A stretch of 64,000 bases of DNA from a virus, in the IMG/VR virus record IMGVR_UViG_3300030061_003198; one strand, given 5' to 3'. Each line of letters starts with the position of its first letter. Positions within the stretch are counted from its first letter, which is position 1. This document shows positions 11,021 to 24,836 of the stretch, in pieces. The notes below the pieces were generated by a model. That model was not told the origin of the DNA, did no database searches, and was given only the letters and a program-made list of their open reading frames with translations. The translations under genes and the position numbers were made by a program.

Positions 11021-12271
11021 TTATATTTTAAAAAACTTATTAAATTGATTTGCATCAGTAGTTGATATACTATCACCACCAAATTTCTTATATGTTTTCT
11101 TGTATGTTGCATAAACATTCATTGCATTATCAGGATCTTCAAACATTGCATGCAATGATAATATAACATCATATAAGTCCTTTGGAATTGCTGTTTCTAA
11201 CAATTCAACATGATTATTTACTAGTTTGCTAACATCTTTAGCAATATTTACATATAAATGAGTATTATGTATAACCATTCTTGGCATTCCTTCTTGACTA
11301 TATCTATCTAATCCGGCTGCTGTTTGTCCACCTAAGTAATCATATGTAAAGTCTTTACAAGCTGGACAATCTATACTACATGGTACATGTCTCGATGTAT
11401 CAATATTAACTACAGGGTTTGCCATATTTGCATGTTTTTTTCTTCTATACTCATTATTCTTCGGAAAATATAACTCAGTAAATGTTTGAGTTTTATAATT
11501 ACCAGAATGAAGATATGTTCCAAATACAGGATATTGTCCTGGAGAGCTAGAATCTGTTGAAAACAATACTCTATCATCAGTTAACTTATTAACTAGCTTT
11601 TGTAATGTTGCTAATATAAAGAAGTCTGATATTTTTGATATACCTAATAAGTGTATATACTTTATATGTTTCTTTTCAAATTCTCTCTCTTTAAGCATTA
11701 ATGCTATAACATACATAAAGTCTACTAATTTCTTAGGGCCTCCAATACACCATCCATTAAATGCAAAATCTTTAAATTTATGATACCATTGTGCATATTC
11801 TTCATGATATGTACCTTGAATAACATTTAAGAAGTCTGTTTTACCTGTTTGTTTAGATTCAAAATATTTAAAGTTATCAAAACTTATATCCATTGATTCT
11901 GCGAATCGGTTTTCGTATTTTGCTCTAGGTGGAATATCTAAATTTGCTGCTACGTCTGAGTTATGTTCTAACCATTCAAATATACGCTCACGAATTGTAC
12001 TATCCCATTTTAAAGCTCCAGTTGCTATTTGGAATCCTCCTGAATCTCCAAATACTAATACCTCGTCATCTAACCCCATCTGATCCCGAAAGTCCATTTT
12101 TTTGAAATGGTGTCCTGCGGTGATTAAGAAATATGGATGTCTCCATTCTTCTGGATACTCTTTTGAAAAGAATCTAGTTGTAGTTCCATCTTCAAATTTT
12201 GTATTTTTCTTGAATGCAGATACCATACTCCCAGCCGATAATGACGGATAATATATAAAATTCTTATCCAT
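11021..12271 (-). CDS. dpdA: TGT-family base-exchange enzyme, probable DNA 7-deazaguanine transglycosylase (DpdA-like)
   Basis: DSGGFQ, LDIPP, VIQG, HLLG, TDSSS and the Zn site CSIDCPAC..HN; folE2/queD/queE in the same genome region; start moved to MDKNFIYY (TAATG overlap). Confidence 0.8.
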   Translation of the reverse strand: MDKNFIYYPSLSAGSMVSAFKKNTKFEDGTTTRFFSKEYPEEWRHPYFLITAGHHFKKMDFRDQMGLDDEVLVFGDSGGFQIATGALKWDSTIRERIFEWLEHNSDVAANLDIPPRAKYENRFAESMDISFDNFKYFESKQTGKTDFLNVIQGTYHEEYAQWYHKFKDFAFNGWCIGGPKKLVDFMYVIALMLKEREFEKKHIKYIHLLGISKISDFFILATLQKLVNKLTDDRVLFSTDSSSPGQYPVFGTYLHSGNYKTQTFTELYFPKNNEYRRKKHANMANPVVNIDTSRHVPCSIDCPACKDFTYDYLGGQTAAGLDRYSQEGMPRMVIHNTHLYVNIAKDVSKLVNNHVELLETAIPKDLYDVILSLHAMFEDPDNAMNVYATYKKTYKKFGGDSISTTDANQFNKFFKI

Positions 12272-12450
12272 TAATCTACTATCTCCCATGGCTTTTCGCC
12301 TAATTTTGAAAATTGTTCAAATATAAACGTTACTATTTCAGTAGTTTGTTTATCTAAACATCCTTTTTTATCTAGTTGCTCTGCTAGAGCTTGAAATGGA
12401 GTCTCTATAGTCGACTTTATTTCTTGTATTCCTTGTACATCAATTTTCAT
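12271..12450 (-). CDS. 59-aa hypothetical protein
   Basis: Not in the ORF track: MKIDVQGIQEIKSTIETPFQALAEQLDKKGCLDKQTTEIVTFIFEQFSKLGEKPWEIVD; its stop overlaps the dpdA start. Confidence 0.65.
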   Translation of the reverse strand: MKIDVQGIQEIKSTIETPFQALAEQLDKKGCLDKQTTEIVTFIFEQFSKLGEKPWEIVD

Positions 12451-12452
12451 GT

Positions 12453-13619
12453 TTATTCCTCGTTTTTATTTAATAAATGTTTACAATATTCAGCTTCATG
12501 CCAAATATTAATTTCTTGGTCTATTCCATTTGATACAATATATCCTTCCATCTGCCTACCTAAATCTGCTAGATATGCTATATTGTAATTTGGTTGTTTT
12601 ATTTGCATTACTTCATGCAATCTAATAACTGCAGATCCTACGTTAAATGGTGTATATAATTTATCTGCTGGTATAAATTCTGGAAATGATCTAAAATTTG
12701 GAAATACCATATCACAACCAAATGCAGTCGACTCTAATACAGTCCATGATACATAATCTTGTAATGATGAATTAAATTGTATTTTTGCTTCTGCTAATTC
12801 TTTATAATATTCTTGTTTAGTCAAATTCTTTAATAATTTAAAATTAGGCATCTCATCTGCTAATTTATACAATGCATCTATTACTCCAGGTAACATTGAC
12901 TTGAACTCTTTACCAGATGTTGTTACGTGCCATTCTGCACCAGGAAACTCTGTTAAATATTGTTTAGCAACAGCCATCATGAAAAACGGATTTTTTTCTT
13001 TATCTAATCTACTAGAATATACAACTATTGATTTCTTTTTTGCTTCTTTATCATATTCTGGATATTTATCAAGAGTCATTTCTAAATGCAATGGCAATGA
13101 CACAACATGTATAGGAGATTCAAATCCTGCTTCACGCAATTGATCTTTATGAATTGTCGAACCTACAAAGATACCGGTCATTCTTTTATCTAATCCTAAT
13201 TCAAAGCCTCGCATCCAACTTCTCATTGGATATGTAAAATCATATTCATCTACACTTTGAGCATGTAGCATTGCATATATATCTACCTTTATTCCATATA
13301 AATCTAATGCATATAATATTGATTCAATACCCGGATGCCAATAATCTTGTAAAAATATTACATCGCCATTATTAACTTCGTCTTTATTTAACATATCAAG
13401 AAAATTGCTACATTGACTCATAGCAAACTTACCTCTACCGACTGCATCTAATACAGCTCCTACCTTTATTTGCTGATCAGGATCAAATTCTCCTTCAACA
13501 TCAATAAATTCTACTTTATCTGAATATGGCTCGAACGTTGCCGGCATCCATTCTTTTGATAACTGATATGTATATCTTGCCTTTAAAGGCTCTAGTCCAA
13601 AATAAAATACTTTTTTCAT
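12453..13619 (-). CDS. GT-B glycosyltransferase in the DNA-modification cassette
   Basis: SSRLDKEKNP and QDYVSWTVLE (GT4-like C-terminal motif); start moved to MKKVFYF (ATGA overlap). Confidence 0.8.
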   Translation of the reverse strand: MKKVFYFGLEPLKARYTYQLSKEWMPATFEPYSDKVEFIDVEGEFDPDQQIKVGAVLDAVGRGKFAMSQCSNFLDMLNKDEVNNGDVIFLQDYWHPGIESILYALDLYGIKVDIYAMLHAQSVDEYDFTYPMRSWMRGFELGLDKRMTGIFVGSTIHKDQLREAGFESPIHVVSLPLHLEMTLDKYPEYDKEAKKKSIVVYSSRLDKEKNPFFMMAVAKQYLTEFPGAEWHVTTSGKEFKSMLPGVIDALYKLADEMPNFKLLKNLTKQEYYKELAEAKIQFNSSLQDYVSWTVLESTAFGCDMVFPNFRSFPEFIPADKLYTPFNVGSAVIRLHEVMQIKQPNYNIAYLADLGRQMEGYIVSNGIDQEINIWHEAEYCKHLLNKNEE

Positions 13620-13957
13620 CTTTCTATTATTGCTCCATTTTCCCAATCTTCCCAAACCTCTACTTTATATAGATTATCATTTTGTTCTAATAACCATTCG
13701 CCTATATCTTCACAACTCATTCTACCAAATTGTAATATATTTCCATCAAAGTTAGTTCTCAATTGTTTTTTTAATTTTCTTTGCATTAAGATAAATTCTT
13801 CATCTCTATCTGTATGTGTTACTTTTGCATAACAACGAAATCCGAACATATGCCTATGACTATCGGATAAAAATCCTACTTCTGGAAATATTTCTTTAGC
13901 TTCTGGCCAACAATGGAACCCTTCTAAGCTAAATGATACTACTACTGAATATTTCAT
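13616..13957 (-). CDS. T-fold QueD paralogue (DpdL-like, putative CDG decarboxylase)
   Basis: EGFH.W, LSDSHRHMF (LxxxHRHxF), SCE and VWED.EN motifs. Confidence 0.65.
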   Translation of the reverse strand: MKYSVVVSFSLEGFHCWPEAKEIFPEVGFLSDSHRHMFGFRCYAKVTHTDRDEEFILMQRKLKKQLRTNFDGNILQFGRMSCEDIGEWLLEQNDNLYKVEVWEDWENGAIIER

Positions 13958-14472
13958 ATTTTTTCTTTATTAACATGTAAATATTTTAAATATTTTTCAT
14001 TCATATTATTATAATAACTTGTTTTCATTAAATTATCATGTGCTTCATTTAAAACAGATGCTTTAGCTATATTAATTAAAAAATATGGTGCTAAACTTCT
14101 TGCATTAAATCCATTTATATTTAATTTATCATTTGGATTGAAACAAATACACTTTAAATGTTTATATCCATTTTCACGCAAAGTTTTATTAATAAAATCT
14201 TGATAACCAGCTGTATCTTTTTGTTTTAACTCAATATCAGAAACTTGTACAAATAATGCACTATCGTAATCTGTATTTTCGAAGCTTTCTACCATTTCTA
14301 TTAATGTATTTTGAATTGGATCAAATTTTTCTATTAATAATTTATTTTTATCTAGTTCTCCTCCAACAAATGGACAAGGAGGCATATTACCATATTCTTC
14401 CCTAGGAGTTCTTAGTATATTAATATAATCTAACACCCGAGTTTTAAAGTTTGTATATGGGCATTTACTCAT
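13954..14472 (-). CDS. Hypothetical protein with PCPF motif (DUF1415-like)
   Basis: MPPCPF, FNP and APYFLINI patterns resemble DUF1415. Confidence 0.45.
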   Translation of the reverse strand: MSKCPYTNFKTRVLDYINILRTPREEYGNMPPCPFVGGELDKNKLLIEKFDPIQNTLIEMVESFENTDYDSALFVQVSDIELKQKDTAGYQDFINKTLRENGYKHLKCICFNPNDKLNINGFNARSLAPYFLINIAKASVLNEAHDNLMKTSYYNNMNEKYLKYLHVNKEKI

Positions 14473-14924
14473 TAAATTTCTTCGTCAAATTTATAGTTAT
14501 CTGGACTTATTTCCATCATATTGCATTTAGTTACTTGATGAACTCTATACCAGCCTGCGTCAATTGATAATGTGTCAGTGTCTTTAAGCATTTCTAAATA
14601 AGGATCACTGATTCTATAAATAATATGACATCTATTAAATAGATCCGGCTTAATTGTATCTAATGTGTCTTTAGTAGCTTCTATAGTAACAGCACTTTTA
14701 GATTCATTTAAAATACCTCTAATTGTTTCTAGATATTTTTCGTCCTTCATAGACTTTTTCATAAATTCAATTGTAAAATAATAATGAGGATATGATATTA
14801 TAGATTTTACTTCTAAACCATAAGTGCTTCGCATATTATGATTTAAATCTCTTACGAAGAAAGTCATAAGATCTGAATATCGACCTTCTACTTCTCTCCC
14901 TTTCCATTGATGTTTACCGTACAT
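14472..14924 (-). CDS. Hypothetical protein (G.EVEG motif), first gene of the modification cassette
   Basis: ORF with its own upstream promoter, coupled to the next gene by a TAATG overlap. Confidence 0.6.
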   Translation of the reverse strand: MYGKHQWKGREVEGRYSDLMTFFVRDLNHNMRSTYGLEVKSIISYPHYYFTIEFMKKSMKDEKYLETIRGILNESKSAVTIEATKDTLDTIKPDLFNRCHIIYRISDPYLEMLKDTDTLSIDAGWYRVHQVTKCNMMEISPDNYKFDEEI

Positions 14925-14935
14925 ATTTTTTCTAT

Positions 14936-14964
14936 ATTATAATTAATTTTATTGAATTATCCAA
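14936..14964 (-). promoter_or_regulatory. Early/middle promoter TTGGAT-N17-TATAAT
   Basis: The -35 box is formed by the last codons of polB (TTT GGA TAA). Confidence 0.65.
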
Positions 14965-17706: not shown

Positions 17707-18741
17707 TTATATTATAAGTAATTTTTTTTGTTTTTCCAATACCGGTAAAATAGCTAACTCTTTTGCTTTAGCTTCTACAACGATGTCTAGATTTTCAACG
17801 TTATAAGTATTAGGAGTATTCACAATATAATCTGCATGAGCAGGCTCTTTGATCTTGCTAAATATTTTGTATTCTTTTTCAAAGGTCGGCCATAAGTGTA
17901 ATTCTGATAATGGTATATTATTATGATTCAACATTTTTTCTATCAATAACTTTTGCTCTTGTCGTCTAGACTCAGAGTAATGAGTACATTGAGTAACACC
18001 ATGTTTATCCCAGGTAGACTTTGCCATAAAGAATGCTTGACGTTCTGTTAAATCGCCTGTACAGAAGGTATGATGCCAATAGTCAAATGTAATAGGAATA
18101 CCAATTTCTTGGTGTATAAGGTCGTATAGATGCCTTACGCTGTACATAGATGCCTTGTCATCGTTTTCTAAAACTAATCTAGCTTTTAGGGAGTCAGATA
18201 GTCGTTGCCAAGTCTTGATCCACCGCTTAGCAGTAGCTTCACGATCACCATAAGCACCAGCTACATGAATATTGATCTTGTTATGAAACGATGGCTCATA
18301 CCCCATAAGATCAAACATTTCAGAATGTCGTTCTAAGCCAATAATACTTTTTTCTACAACATCTTGTCTAGGGGAACCTAATACATGGAACGGACCAGGA
18401 TGTGTAGTTAATCTATGACCATGTTGCCTAGCAAATTCACCTGCAGCGAATAAGTGCTGAGCAATTTCTTCGTAGTCTGGAAGATCATGTAATTCGTATT
18501 GATCATGCCATGGAAATAATTCAGAGCCTACACGAAATAACGTAATACCATGCTCTTCATTCCATTTGAGATAAGTGAGTAAATCTTTTGCATTGTCTAA
18601 TGCTTTGTCACTAATAAGTTGTAAATTATTAGGATACCAAGAAGCTTTTCTAGCCGTACGGGAAGTAGTAACTCTACCGCCTAATTTCTTGGGTCTATTC
18701 GTTAGTGTTGCGTTAACGCACGCATAGCCATATCTAATCAT
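17707..18741 (-). CDS. uvsE: UV damage endonuclease (UvsE/UVDE)
   Basis: GYAC, FRVGSELFP, HPG, LENDD, FDYWHH, HAD and EAKAKE motifs. Confidence 0.93.
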   Translation of the reverse strand: MIRYGYACVNATLTNRPKKLGGRVTTSRTARKASWYPNNLQLISDKALDNAKDLLTYLKWNEEHGITLFRVGSELFPWHDQYELHDLPDYEEIAQHLFAAGEFARQHGHRLTTHPGPFHVLGSPRQDVVEKSIIGLERHSEMFDLMGYEPSFHNKINIHVAGAYGDREATAKRWIKTWQRLSDSLKARLVLENDDKASMYSVRHLYDLIHQEIGIPITFDYWHHTFCTGDLTERQAFFMAKSTWDKHGVTQCTHYSESRRQEQKLLIEKMLNHNNIPLSELHLWPTFEKEYKIFSKIKEPAHADYIVNTPNTYNVENLDIVVEAKAKELAILPVLEKQKKLLII

Positions 18742-18782: not shown

Positions 18783-19445
18783 TTATGAGTAAGATTGTAA
18801 TAATCGTAATACTTCATTTAATGCAGAATGTCTATGGTTGTCTTTTAAAGTAACAGCATGAACAAAATTAGATCCTTTAACTTTAGGTACATCATGTATT
18901 GCCGAATCATTACTAAATTTTAAATCAATTTGTTGCGGGTCTCCTGTTAATATCATTGTGGATCCTTTACCTAATCTACCTAATACCATTCCTAACTGTT
19001 GTTTGGTTAAATTTTGAAATTCATCGATGATTACACACGAATTTTCAAAAGTTCTTCCTCTAAAATGAGATAATGATACTAATTCAATATTTTCATCATT
19101 TTCCATTTTTTCTAATATTTGAGGTTTATTATATACCTTTCTCATATTAGACCGAATTGGAACTAACCATGGCTCCATTTTTTCAGTTAATGAGCCTGGT
19201 AAATACCCATTATCTTCATTTGATACAGTTGGTCTGGTAATAATGATTTGATTAACACTCCTTTTGAAAAACATATCCAATGCAACTTGAACTGCTAACA
19301 ATGTTTTGCCACTTCCTGCTTTACCTATAATAAAATTATATGGATGCATTAATATTTCAGCTTTTGCTAATTTTTGTTCTTCCGATAATGAAATTGAAAA
19401 TCTTACATTACCTTTCGGTGGAGTCTTATCTTTGTTATCTGGCAT
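18783..19445 (-). CDS. phoH: PhoH-like ATPase
   Basis: GKAGSGKT, GYLPG, RGRTF, DEFQN and GDPQQID. Confidence 0.93.
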   Translation of the reverse strand: MPDNKDKTPPKGNVRFSISLSEEQKLAKAEILMHPYNFIIGKAGSGKTLLAVQVALDMFFKRSVNQIIITRPTVSNEDNGYLPGSLTEKMEPWLVPIRSNMRKVYNKPQILEKMENDENIELVSLSHFRGRTFENSCVIIDEFQNLTKQQLGMVLGRLGKGSTMILTGDPQQIDLKFSNDSAIHDVPKVKGSNFVHAVTLKDNHRHSALNEVLRLLQSYS

Positions 19446-20000: not shown

Positions 20001-20300
20001 TTAGTTTGACACCATTGATATTTCCATTTCTCTTACTAGAATATAGTCAATGTTATCAAATTTTACTTTTTTCTGTGTACCTAAATTATTTTTACTAATT
20101 AATACAACGTCATCTTTTGAGACTGACATTGGTATTCTATTTCCTGTTTGTGTAAATAATCCAGGTCCAACTGCGATTACATCGGCATATACAAATTCTT
20201 CGTCATACCCAGCATCTACTAATATAATTCCAGATTCTGTTTTATCAGATTTTTCTTGTTCTCGGATCAATACTTGATCTCCCATTGGTTGCATTTTCAT
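20001..20300 (-). CDS. groES: Co-chaperonin GroES
   Basis: PMGDQVLI, KTESGIIL and VIAVGPG. Confidence 0.9.
   Translation of the reverse strand: MKMQPMGDQVLIREQEKSDKTESGIILVDAGYDEEFVYADVIAVGPGLFTQTGNRIPMSVSKDDVVLISKNNLGTQKKVKFDNIDYILVREMEISMVSN

Positions 20301-23183: not shown

Positions 23184-24836
<1,653 letters not shown>

Follow-up and report, generated by a model that had tools for sequence, protein, structure and literature searches.

A GT4-type glycosyltransferase linked to the DpdL-type 7-deazaguanine pathway in phages: a candidate system for a sugar-bearing DNA base

Introduction

The subject of this study is a block of six packed minus-strand open reading frames (ORFs) found between the genes for DNA polymerase B and the sliding clamp in a 64,000-nucleotide stretch of DNA (hereafter, the window), which comes from a marine T4-like phage and is part of IMG/VR virus record IMGVR_UViG_3300030061_003198, a record of 112 kb that is about 66% complete and has about 30% G+C. 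Four of the genes of this block form a core that travels together in many phage lineages, and they encode a 150-residue QueE-like protein (g150), the QueD paralogue DpdL, a glycosyltransferase (GT) and a long DpdA-like transglycosylase. The GT very likely belongs to the deazaguanine pathway, since a passenger gene would not keep such company through so many rearrangements. The reading put forward here, to which a probability of roughly 0.45 is given, is that of a QueC-less system of the DpdL type, which would replace the guanine of the phage DNA by 7-deazaguanine and which would include two extra core proteins, the GT4-type GT and the QueE-derived g150. That the phage DNA holds a sugar-bearing base, as the gene linkage suggests, is given about the same chance. 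The fullest form of the proposal, in which the four-protein module makes a glycosylated 7-deazaguanine, the first sugar-bearing purine in natural DNA, with the sugar as a swappable specificity element, is somewhat more tentative.

Linkage of the glycosyltransferase with deazaguanine genes

The co-occurrence of the GT family with dpdA and dpdL, a check proposed in the first-pass annotation of this DNA, was surveyed with our own profile hidden Markov models (HMMs) in the 53 of 135 loci that hold at least 2.5 kb on either side of the GT gene. It was verified that every one of these 53 loci carries DpdL or DpdA, with DpdL being detected in 48 and DpdA in 46. Two phages without an adjoining DpdL encode it elsewhere in the genome, and the loci without an HMM match to DpdA carry, beside the GT, divergent DpdA-like genes that keep the same two aspartate motifs. 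The linkage extends to three distant contigs, whose GTs are 32-34% identical to that of the window and have DpdL within 1 kb in each case, and to six cultured phage lineages (ACP17, the PA5oct group, BUCT-ZZ01, BCSR5, X1/BUDD and Phosso), where the GT is found inside the FolE/QueD/QueE/DpdL set in differing gene orders. The order polB, g150, DpdL, GT, DpdA and clamp is kept in 80 related marine loci, and the order of the core genes is shuffled among the phages that carry them, whose hosts belong to several phyla. Additionally, the block of the window was found in marine sequencing runs from ten studies, and a DNA search with it against 50,697 phage records gave no match. DpdL also occurs without the GT, in phiST, Vibrio D479 and others, which combine it with a short DpdA3 and a kinase-like gene (in phiST also with MazG) and which have no g150.

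The GT family, which comprises 988 clusters at 50% identity, looks phage-borne, because a scan of 185,579 species genomes with the 20-row alignment, an insensitive short-pattern scan, matched four short contigs of metagenome-assembled genomes (MAGs) only. Both observations bear on the idea that the GT is a passenger, serving the glycosylation of the virion or of the host envelope with no role in base modification. This idea is very improbable, given that GT, DpdL and DpdA are found together in differing orders across unrelated phages and that the family, within the sensitivity of that scan, seems confined to phages. GT-like matches in Xanthomonas phages of the PhiXhv/Ep026 type, which lie with GlmS and a deacetylase, without DpdL, and cover 64% of the query, were set aside as members of another GT4 family. 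In one of the three distant relatives, the run of DpdA, DpdL and GT continues (L150:2552-3647) with a small T-fold gene of QueF-like type, whose 21 bits do not reach the Pfam cut-off, and with a gene for a Vut_1/YhhQ-type transporter.

DpdL, DpdA and the supply of 7-carboxy-7-deazaguanine

The 113-residue protein encoded at 13616..13957 on the minus strand is, on sequence grounds, DpdL, a T-fold paralogue of QueD and the proposed decarboxylase of 7-carboxy-7-deazaguanine (CDG). It is 40% identical to the DpdL of the Cellulophaga phage phiST (CGPG_00067) over residues 1-113 (tblastn E 5e-14), and the HMM built here for DpdL scores the phiST protein at 1e-32 to 1e-39. The signature in the window protein reads FLSDSHRHMFGF, that is, L-x3-H-R-H-x-F instead of the C-x3-H-G-H of QueD; L30, H34 and H36 of this signature, as well as H15, are invariant among 20 homologues, and R35 and F38 are nearly so. 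This is the motif by which DpdL was defined (Cui et al. 2023, PMC10516641), and the description of DpdL given in the first-pass annotation agrees with that paper. The genome context is also the one expected for DpdL, since FolE, QueD, QueE and DpdA are encoded and QueC was not found.

The 422-residue protein encoded at 11021..12289 on the minus strand (416 residues if the start lies at 12271) is, by its profile match and motifs, a long and divergent member of the TGT/DpdA superfamily, in accordance with its first assignment as a TGT-family enzyme. Its score against the Pfam TGT family PF01702 (28.4 bits) exceeds the cut-off of 26.3, and D82-S-G-G-F-Q, D118, Q158-G159, H213-L-L-G and D246-S-S-S-P are invariant or nearly so among 16 homologues, so that DSGGFQ, LDIPP, VIQG, HLLG and DSSSP, including both aspartate motifs, are kept. 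It falls together with the long-form proteins of PA5oct, ACP17, X1 and BCSR5, and its match to the PA5oct protein that adjoins the PA5oct GT reaches a BLASTP E of 3e-21. Against the NCBIfam DpdA profile it scores 18 bits (cut-off 200), and its likeness to the 259-residue DpdA3 of phiST is remote (hhalign P 0.004 over 176 columns). Searches of DpdL, DpdA and a DpdA profile against PDB sequences with phmmer gave nothing significant.

The TGT superfamily consists primarily of tRNA enzymes, and glycosylated queuosine occurs in eukaryotic tRNA. It could thus be imagined that the TGT-like enzyme and the GT modify tRNA, giving a glycosylated deazaguanosine comparable to mannosyl- and galactosyl-queuosine. 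Several observations make this highly improbable. The DNA of PA5oct, in which a homologous DpdA lies beside a GT, contains a modified G and is not cut by restriction enzymes that have G in the recognition site (PMC12191111), and in phiST, which has DpdL, the DpdL/DpdA3 system replaces all G of the DNA by 2'-deoxy-7-deazaguanosine (dDG) (Cui, Hutinet et al., NAR 2023, PMC10516641). Additionally, the window contains no tRNA gene, and the block lies among replication genes.

The genes that would supply CDG are located 6-8 kb upstream of the block, all on the minus strand, and had been recognized from the start as FolE, QueD and QueE. FolE2 (22871-21837) scores 273 bits against its NCBIfam profile, above the cut-off; QueD (21680-21216, 27 bits) and QueE (21238-20441, 60 bits) score below theirs and match the QueD and QueE of ACP17, BUCT-ZZ01 and BCSR5. 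Neither QueC nor QueF was found in the whole 112-kb record, and the absence of QueC is not final, since the record itself is incomplete. Outside the window, this record encodes an HPRT-type phosphoribosyltransferase of 168 residues (G000:C1:103144-103557; L157:1453-1959; PF00156, 87 bits), and the deazaguanine clusters of PA5oct and BUCT-ZZ01 contain HPRT-like genes as well. The guanine that base exchange sets free may be recovered by such an enzyme. Around the supply genes, the window also encodes GroEL and GroES homologues, a UvdE UV endonuclease and PhoH (23205-24827, 20001-20300, 17707-18741 and 18783-19445).

Structure and variation of the glycosyltransferase

The GT is a protein of 388 residues encoded at 12453..13619 on the minus strand. 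Its start was placed at the ATG at 13619, which corresponds to residue 13 of a 400-residue ORF opening with TTG, because the homologues align from this ATG and not from the upstream TTG. The AlphaFold2 model (predicted local distance difference test, pLDDT, 96.3) has the two Rossmann domains of a GT-B fold, as had been proposed from sequence. The best structural match is BshA (Z 26.8, root-mean-square deviation 3.2 Å over 315 residues), and nearly all of the 50 best matches are GT-B enzymes of the retaining type, for the most part from family GT4 and with small-molecule acceptors. BshA, MshA, sucrose-phosphate synthase, SenB and LmbT are among the nearest structures. R204 and K209 are invariant, and D288-x7-E296 is at least 90% conserved in a 69-row alignment and invariant in a 20-row one; we take the first two, at the diphosphate, and the latter pair, at the E-x7-E position, to be the residues with which GT4 enzymes bind the nucleotide-sugar donor. 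Because these residues are conserved in a GT4-type fold, the GT appears catalytically competent, as far as the model and the alignments indicate. At the level of sequence families, the GT has no Pfam match at E 0.01, its relatives score 19-28 bits to PF00534 (cut-off 26.4), many of them carry a precomputed PF00534 match, and phmmer found nothing significant among PDB sequences.

The structural neighbours also bear on the possibility that the DNA holds plain dDG, as in phiST, and that the substrate of the GT is an intermediate or by-product, such as a pterin, released guanine or surplus deazaguanine base. Trapping by the GT could then complete the exchange or protect host or phage tRNA, and the pterin route could resemble that of the cyanobacterial tetrahydrobiopterin glucosyltransferase. 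The structural matches do include tetrahydrobiopterin glucosyltransferases (Z 23.8 and 23.1), the pathway passes through pterins and includes T-fold enzymes, phiST fully replaces G by dDG without any GT, and 7-deazaguanine is devoid of a hydroxyl group. However, the pterin enzymes, at ranks 27 and 42, are not set apart from the rest of the GT4 enzymes, and the phage HPRT would already remove free guanine. A side reaction would, moreover, hardly hold the GT beside DpdL or DpdA in every sampled lineage, or make it co-evolve with a QueE-like partner. This explanation is consequently regarded as rather unlikely.

The comparison with the nearest genomes (L018, L038 and L072) uncovered a discontinuity within the GT. 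The polB, g150, DpdL and DpdA genes, together with GT residues 1-160, are 85-96% identical to those of these genomes, whereas residues 161-388, the donor-binding domain (window 12453-13138), are just 47-75% identical. Since the C-terminal half diverges while the N-terminal half and the flanks stay nearly identical, this finding suggests that donor specificity has been exchanged on a constant acceptor domain. It is because the donor-binding half appears to have been exchanged between near-identical phages that the sugar would, in the fullest form of the proposal, be a swappable specificity element.

Other variations of the family were also observed. A complete phage of 197 kb has two GT paralogues in one deazaguanine region (L119:7992-9176 and L119:13221-14315), the second of which begins at the DpdL stop codon, and the same holds for L120; such pairs could correspond to two sugars or two donors. 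In P0193, a 726-residue homologue, the GT is split by an intein-like insert (Intein_splicing 26 bits, below the Pfam cut-off of 35.8).

The QueE-like protein g150 and the accessory genes

The 150-residue protein g150 (14472..14924, minus strand) had been left as an unknown, a description that is provisionally replaced here, since its best matches in two structure libraries and its N-terminal motif point to a QueE-like protein without the cluster. The AlphaFold2 model has a pLDDT of 92.5; its three best VIA-align matches are all QueE (Z 5.5-5.9 over 116-129 residues), and its best match in the ESM Atlas is a QueE cluster, with a template-modelling (TM) score of 0.65 over 137 residues. Additionally, g150 has the N-terminal E-x-E-G...F-V-R of QueE at the same spacing (13 columns; hhalign P 0.004, probability 8.7%), and some homologues are more QueE-like still, with E-x-E-G-R-x-x-G-I-P-x-L-F. 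The protein contains neither the C-x3-C-x2-C nor the C-x14-C-x2-C motif, and its alignment has no invariant or near-invariant cysteine; lacking a cysteine motif for an iron-sulfur cluster, it would be incapable of radical S-adenosylmethionine (SAM) chemistry. In the comparison with QueE, the likeness would lie in the fold and in the N-terminal motif spacing (E-G...F-x-R), and the differences are a length shorter by about 100 residues and the missing cluster cysteines. Provisionally, model and sequence are taken to indicate a protein derived from QueE, which would have kept the binding of a pterin or deazapurine and lost the radical chemistry.

g150 matches no sequence family. A Foldseek search against the PDB gave nothing at E of 0.001 or below, and the small GTPases that made up its weak rows were put down to a generic alpha/beta arrangement. 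A kinship of g150 with DpdL was likewise rejected: hhalign shows no relation between the two, and an early weak phmmer match of g150 to the DpdL of PA5oct was therefore due to chance. The gene is present in most close relatives and lies directly upstream of the GT gene in BCSR5 and X1; in ACP17 a weak g150-like match lies upstream of DpdA. A natural fusion was also found in a phage whose complete genome measures 70 kb and has terminal repeats; here a g150-like domain is C-terminal to DpdL (residues 1-105) in a single protein (L132:7135-7995), inside a compact operon of QueD, QueE, FolE, DpdL::g150, GT and a DpdA-like gene.

The remaining two genes of the block are accessory. The 172-residue protein g172 (13954..14472, minus strand) resembles phage clusters of DUF1415/DUF6875 in the ESM Atlas (feature score 0.95, with 226-228 shared features), which bears out its earlier DUF1415-like label, and it has no Pfam match. 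It is present in about 5 of 81 related loci. The 59-residue protein g59 (12271..12450, minus strand) has no family match, and homologues 56-73% identical to it were found in 30 of the 80 related loci. In 23 relatives, the slot between g150 and dpdL holds a cytidylyltransferase-like gene (L015:3869-4297, 142 residues; PF01467, 33 bits), which possibly fits a donor-activating step.

Gene layout and promoter-like site

The first-pass annotation had described a six-gene cassette preceded by a promoter. The six ORFs lie where it had placed them, flanked upstream by the DNA polymerase B gene (17476-14957, minus strand; Pfam 144 bits) and downstream by the sliding clamp or processivity factor gene (11008-10301, minus strand; PHROG 223), with a dUTPase gene also on the clamp side. 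Their tight coupling is likewise as described, with one 1-nucleotide TAATG overlap, two ATGA overlaps and one 2-nucleotide gap; g59 overlaps dpdA by 19 nucleotides, or by 1 nucleotide if dpdA starts at the second methionine. The gene calls thus stand. However, the unit is not one of six genes, because g172 and g59 are restricted to the fractions of close relatives given above, and the core consists of g150, DpdL, GT and DpdA.

The promoter-like TTGGAT-N17-TATAAT (14936..14964, minus strand), whose -35 part overlaps the polB stop codon, is present as reported. In the window, 50 promoter-like sites were found against 56 +/- 8 in shuffles, so that there is no excess in this A+T-rich sequence. In related phages, TTGG-N14-20-TATAWT recurs in 51 of the 62 distinct regions upstream of g150, even in some relatives where another gene precedes it. 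Support for the promoter thus comes from its conservation and not from the statistics of the window. A TTTGGAT...TATAAT form also lies directly upstream of the GroEL gene of the window.

Proposed mechanism

In the proposed mechanism, FolE2, QueD and QueE would convert GTP into CDG, and g150, having the substrate-binding N-terminal motif of QueE, would bind CDG or a close relative and work with DpdL, which would decarboxylate CDG to 7-deazaguanine, following the precedent of phiST. The GT would transfer a sugar from a nucleotide-activated donor to the deazaguanine, and the long DpdA would then swap guanine in the phage DNA for the product. The expected outcome would be phage DNA that resists restriction enzymes because a sugar-bearing 7-deazaguanine takes the place of G. 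Candidate acceptor atoms are N2, C7/C8 or the carboxylate of CDG.

The free base is slightly favoured as the acceptor in view of the acidity of the GT family (median isoelectric point, pI, about 6; 5.1 for the GT of the window), its small-molecule structural neighbours, its linkage, which is tightest to DpdL and g150, and the precedent of HuiG, discussed below. Alternatively, the sugar could be added after insertion, with DpdA inserting plain 7-deazaguanine (or CDG) and the GT flipping the base out and glycosylating it in the duplex, in the manner of the T4 alpha- and beta-glucosyltransferases on 5-hydroxymethylcytosine. The phage DNA glucosyltransferases are GT-B enzymes, the GT gene lies between dpdL and dpdA and beside replication genes, and DpdA would need no enlarged pocket in this case. 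On the other hand, the acidic pI, the lack of any DNA glucosyltransferase among the 50 best structural matches and a linkage to DpdL at least as tight as that to DpdA speak against it, each of these being a weak argument. Transfer after insertion is thus unlikely, with enough in its favour to be kept in view, and it also gives a sugar-bearing base.

Glycosylation of the free base before insertion, the slightly favoured course, has to face several objections, some of which concern the proposal as a whole. Plain 7-deazaguanine has no hydroxyl group, and the usual O-glycosylation by GT4 enzymes therefore has no obvious site, so that N- or C-glycosylation, or an ester on CDG, must be assumed. The pocket of TGT-type enzymes reads the 2-amino group, and a base carrying its sugar on N2 might therefore not be insertable. 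The QueE likeness of g150, with Z below 6 and a motif of 13 columns, could reflect a common fold alone. The cytidylyltransferase-like gene of the relatives was not found in the window's own record, and the block has no donor-activating gene of its own. Finally, the CDG decarboxylase role of DpdL is a proposal, unproven even for the DpdL of phiST and ACP17 (PMC10516641). The chance given above to a sugar-bearing DNA base was reached by weighing the arguments for the free base against the missing hydroxyl, the unproven DpdL reaction and the TGT pocket.

Two published results fit a missing step of this kind. The expression of ACP17 dpdL and dpdA in E. coli gave no dDG, for which the authors suggested further enzymes (PMC10516641), and the second result is the modified G of PA5oct mentioned above.

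Novelty and significance

To our knowledge, the glycosylated bases of natural DNA are all pyrimidines. Of 7-deazaguanine derivatives, phage DNA is known to contain eight (Cui et al. 2023, PMC10516641), and no sugar-bearing one was found among them. A full-text literature search, in which few subscription journals were covered, returned no report of a glycosylated deazaguanine in DNA and no paper that ties this GT to the deazaguanine pathway. The QueE-like fold of g150, its N-terminal motif without iron-sulfur cysteines and its fusion to DpdL in one complete phage are likewise new here.

If the proposal is true, a sugar-bearing deazapurine would represent a new class of DNA base. It could explain the failure of dpdL and dpdA in E. 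coli, would name the modified G of the PA5oct-type phages, which are candidates for therapy, and would supply substrates with which to study restriction, CRISPR and those defences, of the glycosylase or END type, that recognize modified G. The module occurs widely, and the cultured phages ACP17, PA5oct, BUCT-ZZ01, BCSR5 and X1 make the prediction testable.

Comparison with known systems

The alpha- and beta-glucosyltransferases of T4 are, like the GT described here, phage GT-B enzymes, and they serve counter-defence by glycosylating a non-canonical base of the DNA. However, they act on the hydroxymethyl group of 5-hydroxymethylcytosine in duplex DNA, share no sequence likeness with the GT and, as noted, do not appear among its 50 best structural matches. 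A chemical parallel is found in HuiG of the huimycin cluster of Kutzneria albida, which puts N-acetylglucosamine (GlcNAc) on N2 of a free 7-deazapurine (PMC7439116; also a 2026 preprint). Compared by description, HuiG is encoded with FolE, QueD and QueE homologues, and its family carries the GT4 N-terminal domain PF13439. In contrast to the product proposed here, that of HuiG is a secondary metabolite and not part of DNA; since its substrate is O-methylated preQ0, the pathway needs QueC.

Among phages, Acidovorax ACP17, Pseudomonas PA5oct, Synechococcus BUCT-ZZ01, Burkholderia BCSR5 and Xanthomonas X1 have the same core of long DpdA, GT and DpdL, known from their genes, and a g150-like protein occurs in BCSR5 and X1 and weakly in ACP17. 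Their sets differ from that of the window in gene order and accessory genes, with identities of 23-35%, and their deposited annotations mostly read 'hypothetical protein'. The phiST system differs in that it has no GT4 enzyme and no g150, carries MazG-like and P-loop kinase-like genes instead, and uses a DpdA3 of 259 residues in comparison to the 422 of the window protein. Nevertheless, both share FolE, QueD and QueE without QueC, a DpdL with L-x3-H-R-H-x-F, a transglycosylase of the TGT superfamily and a site beside a DNA polymerase gene.

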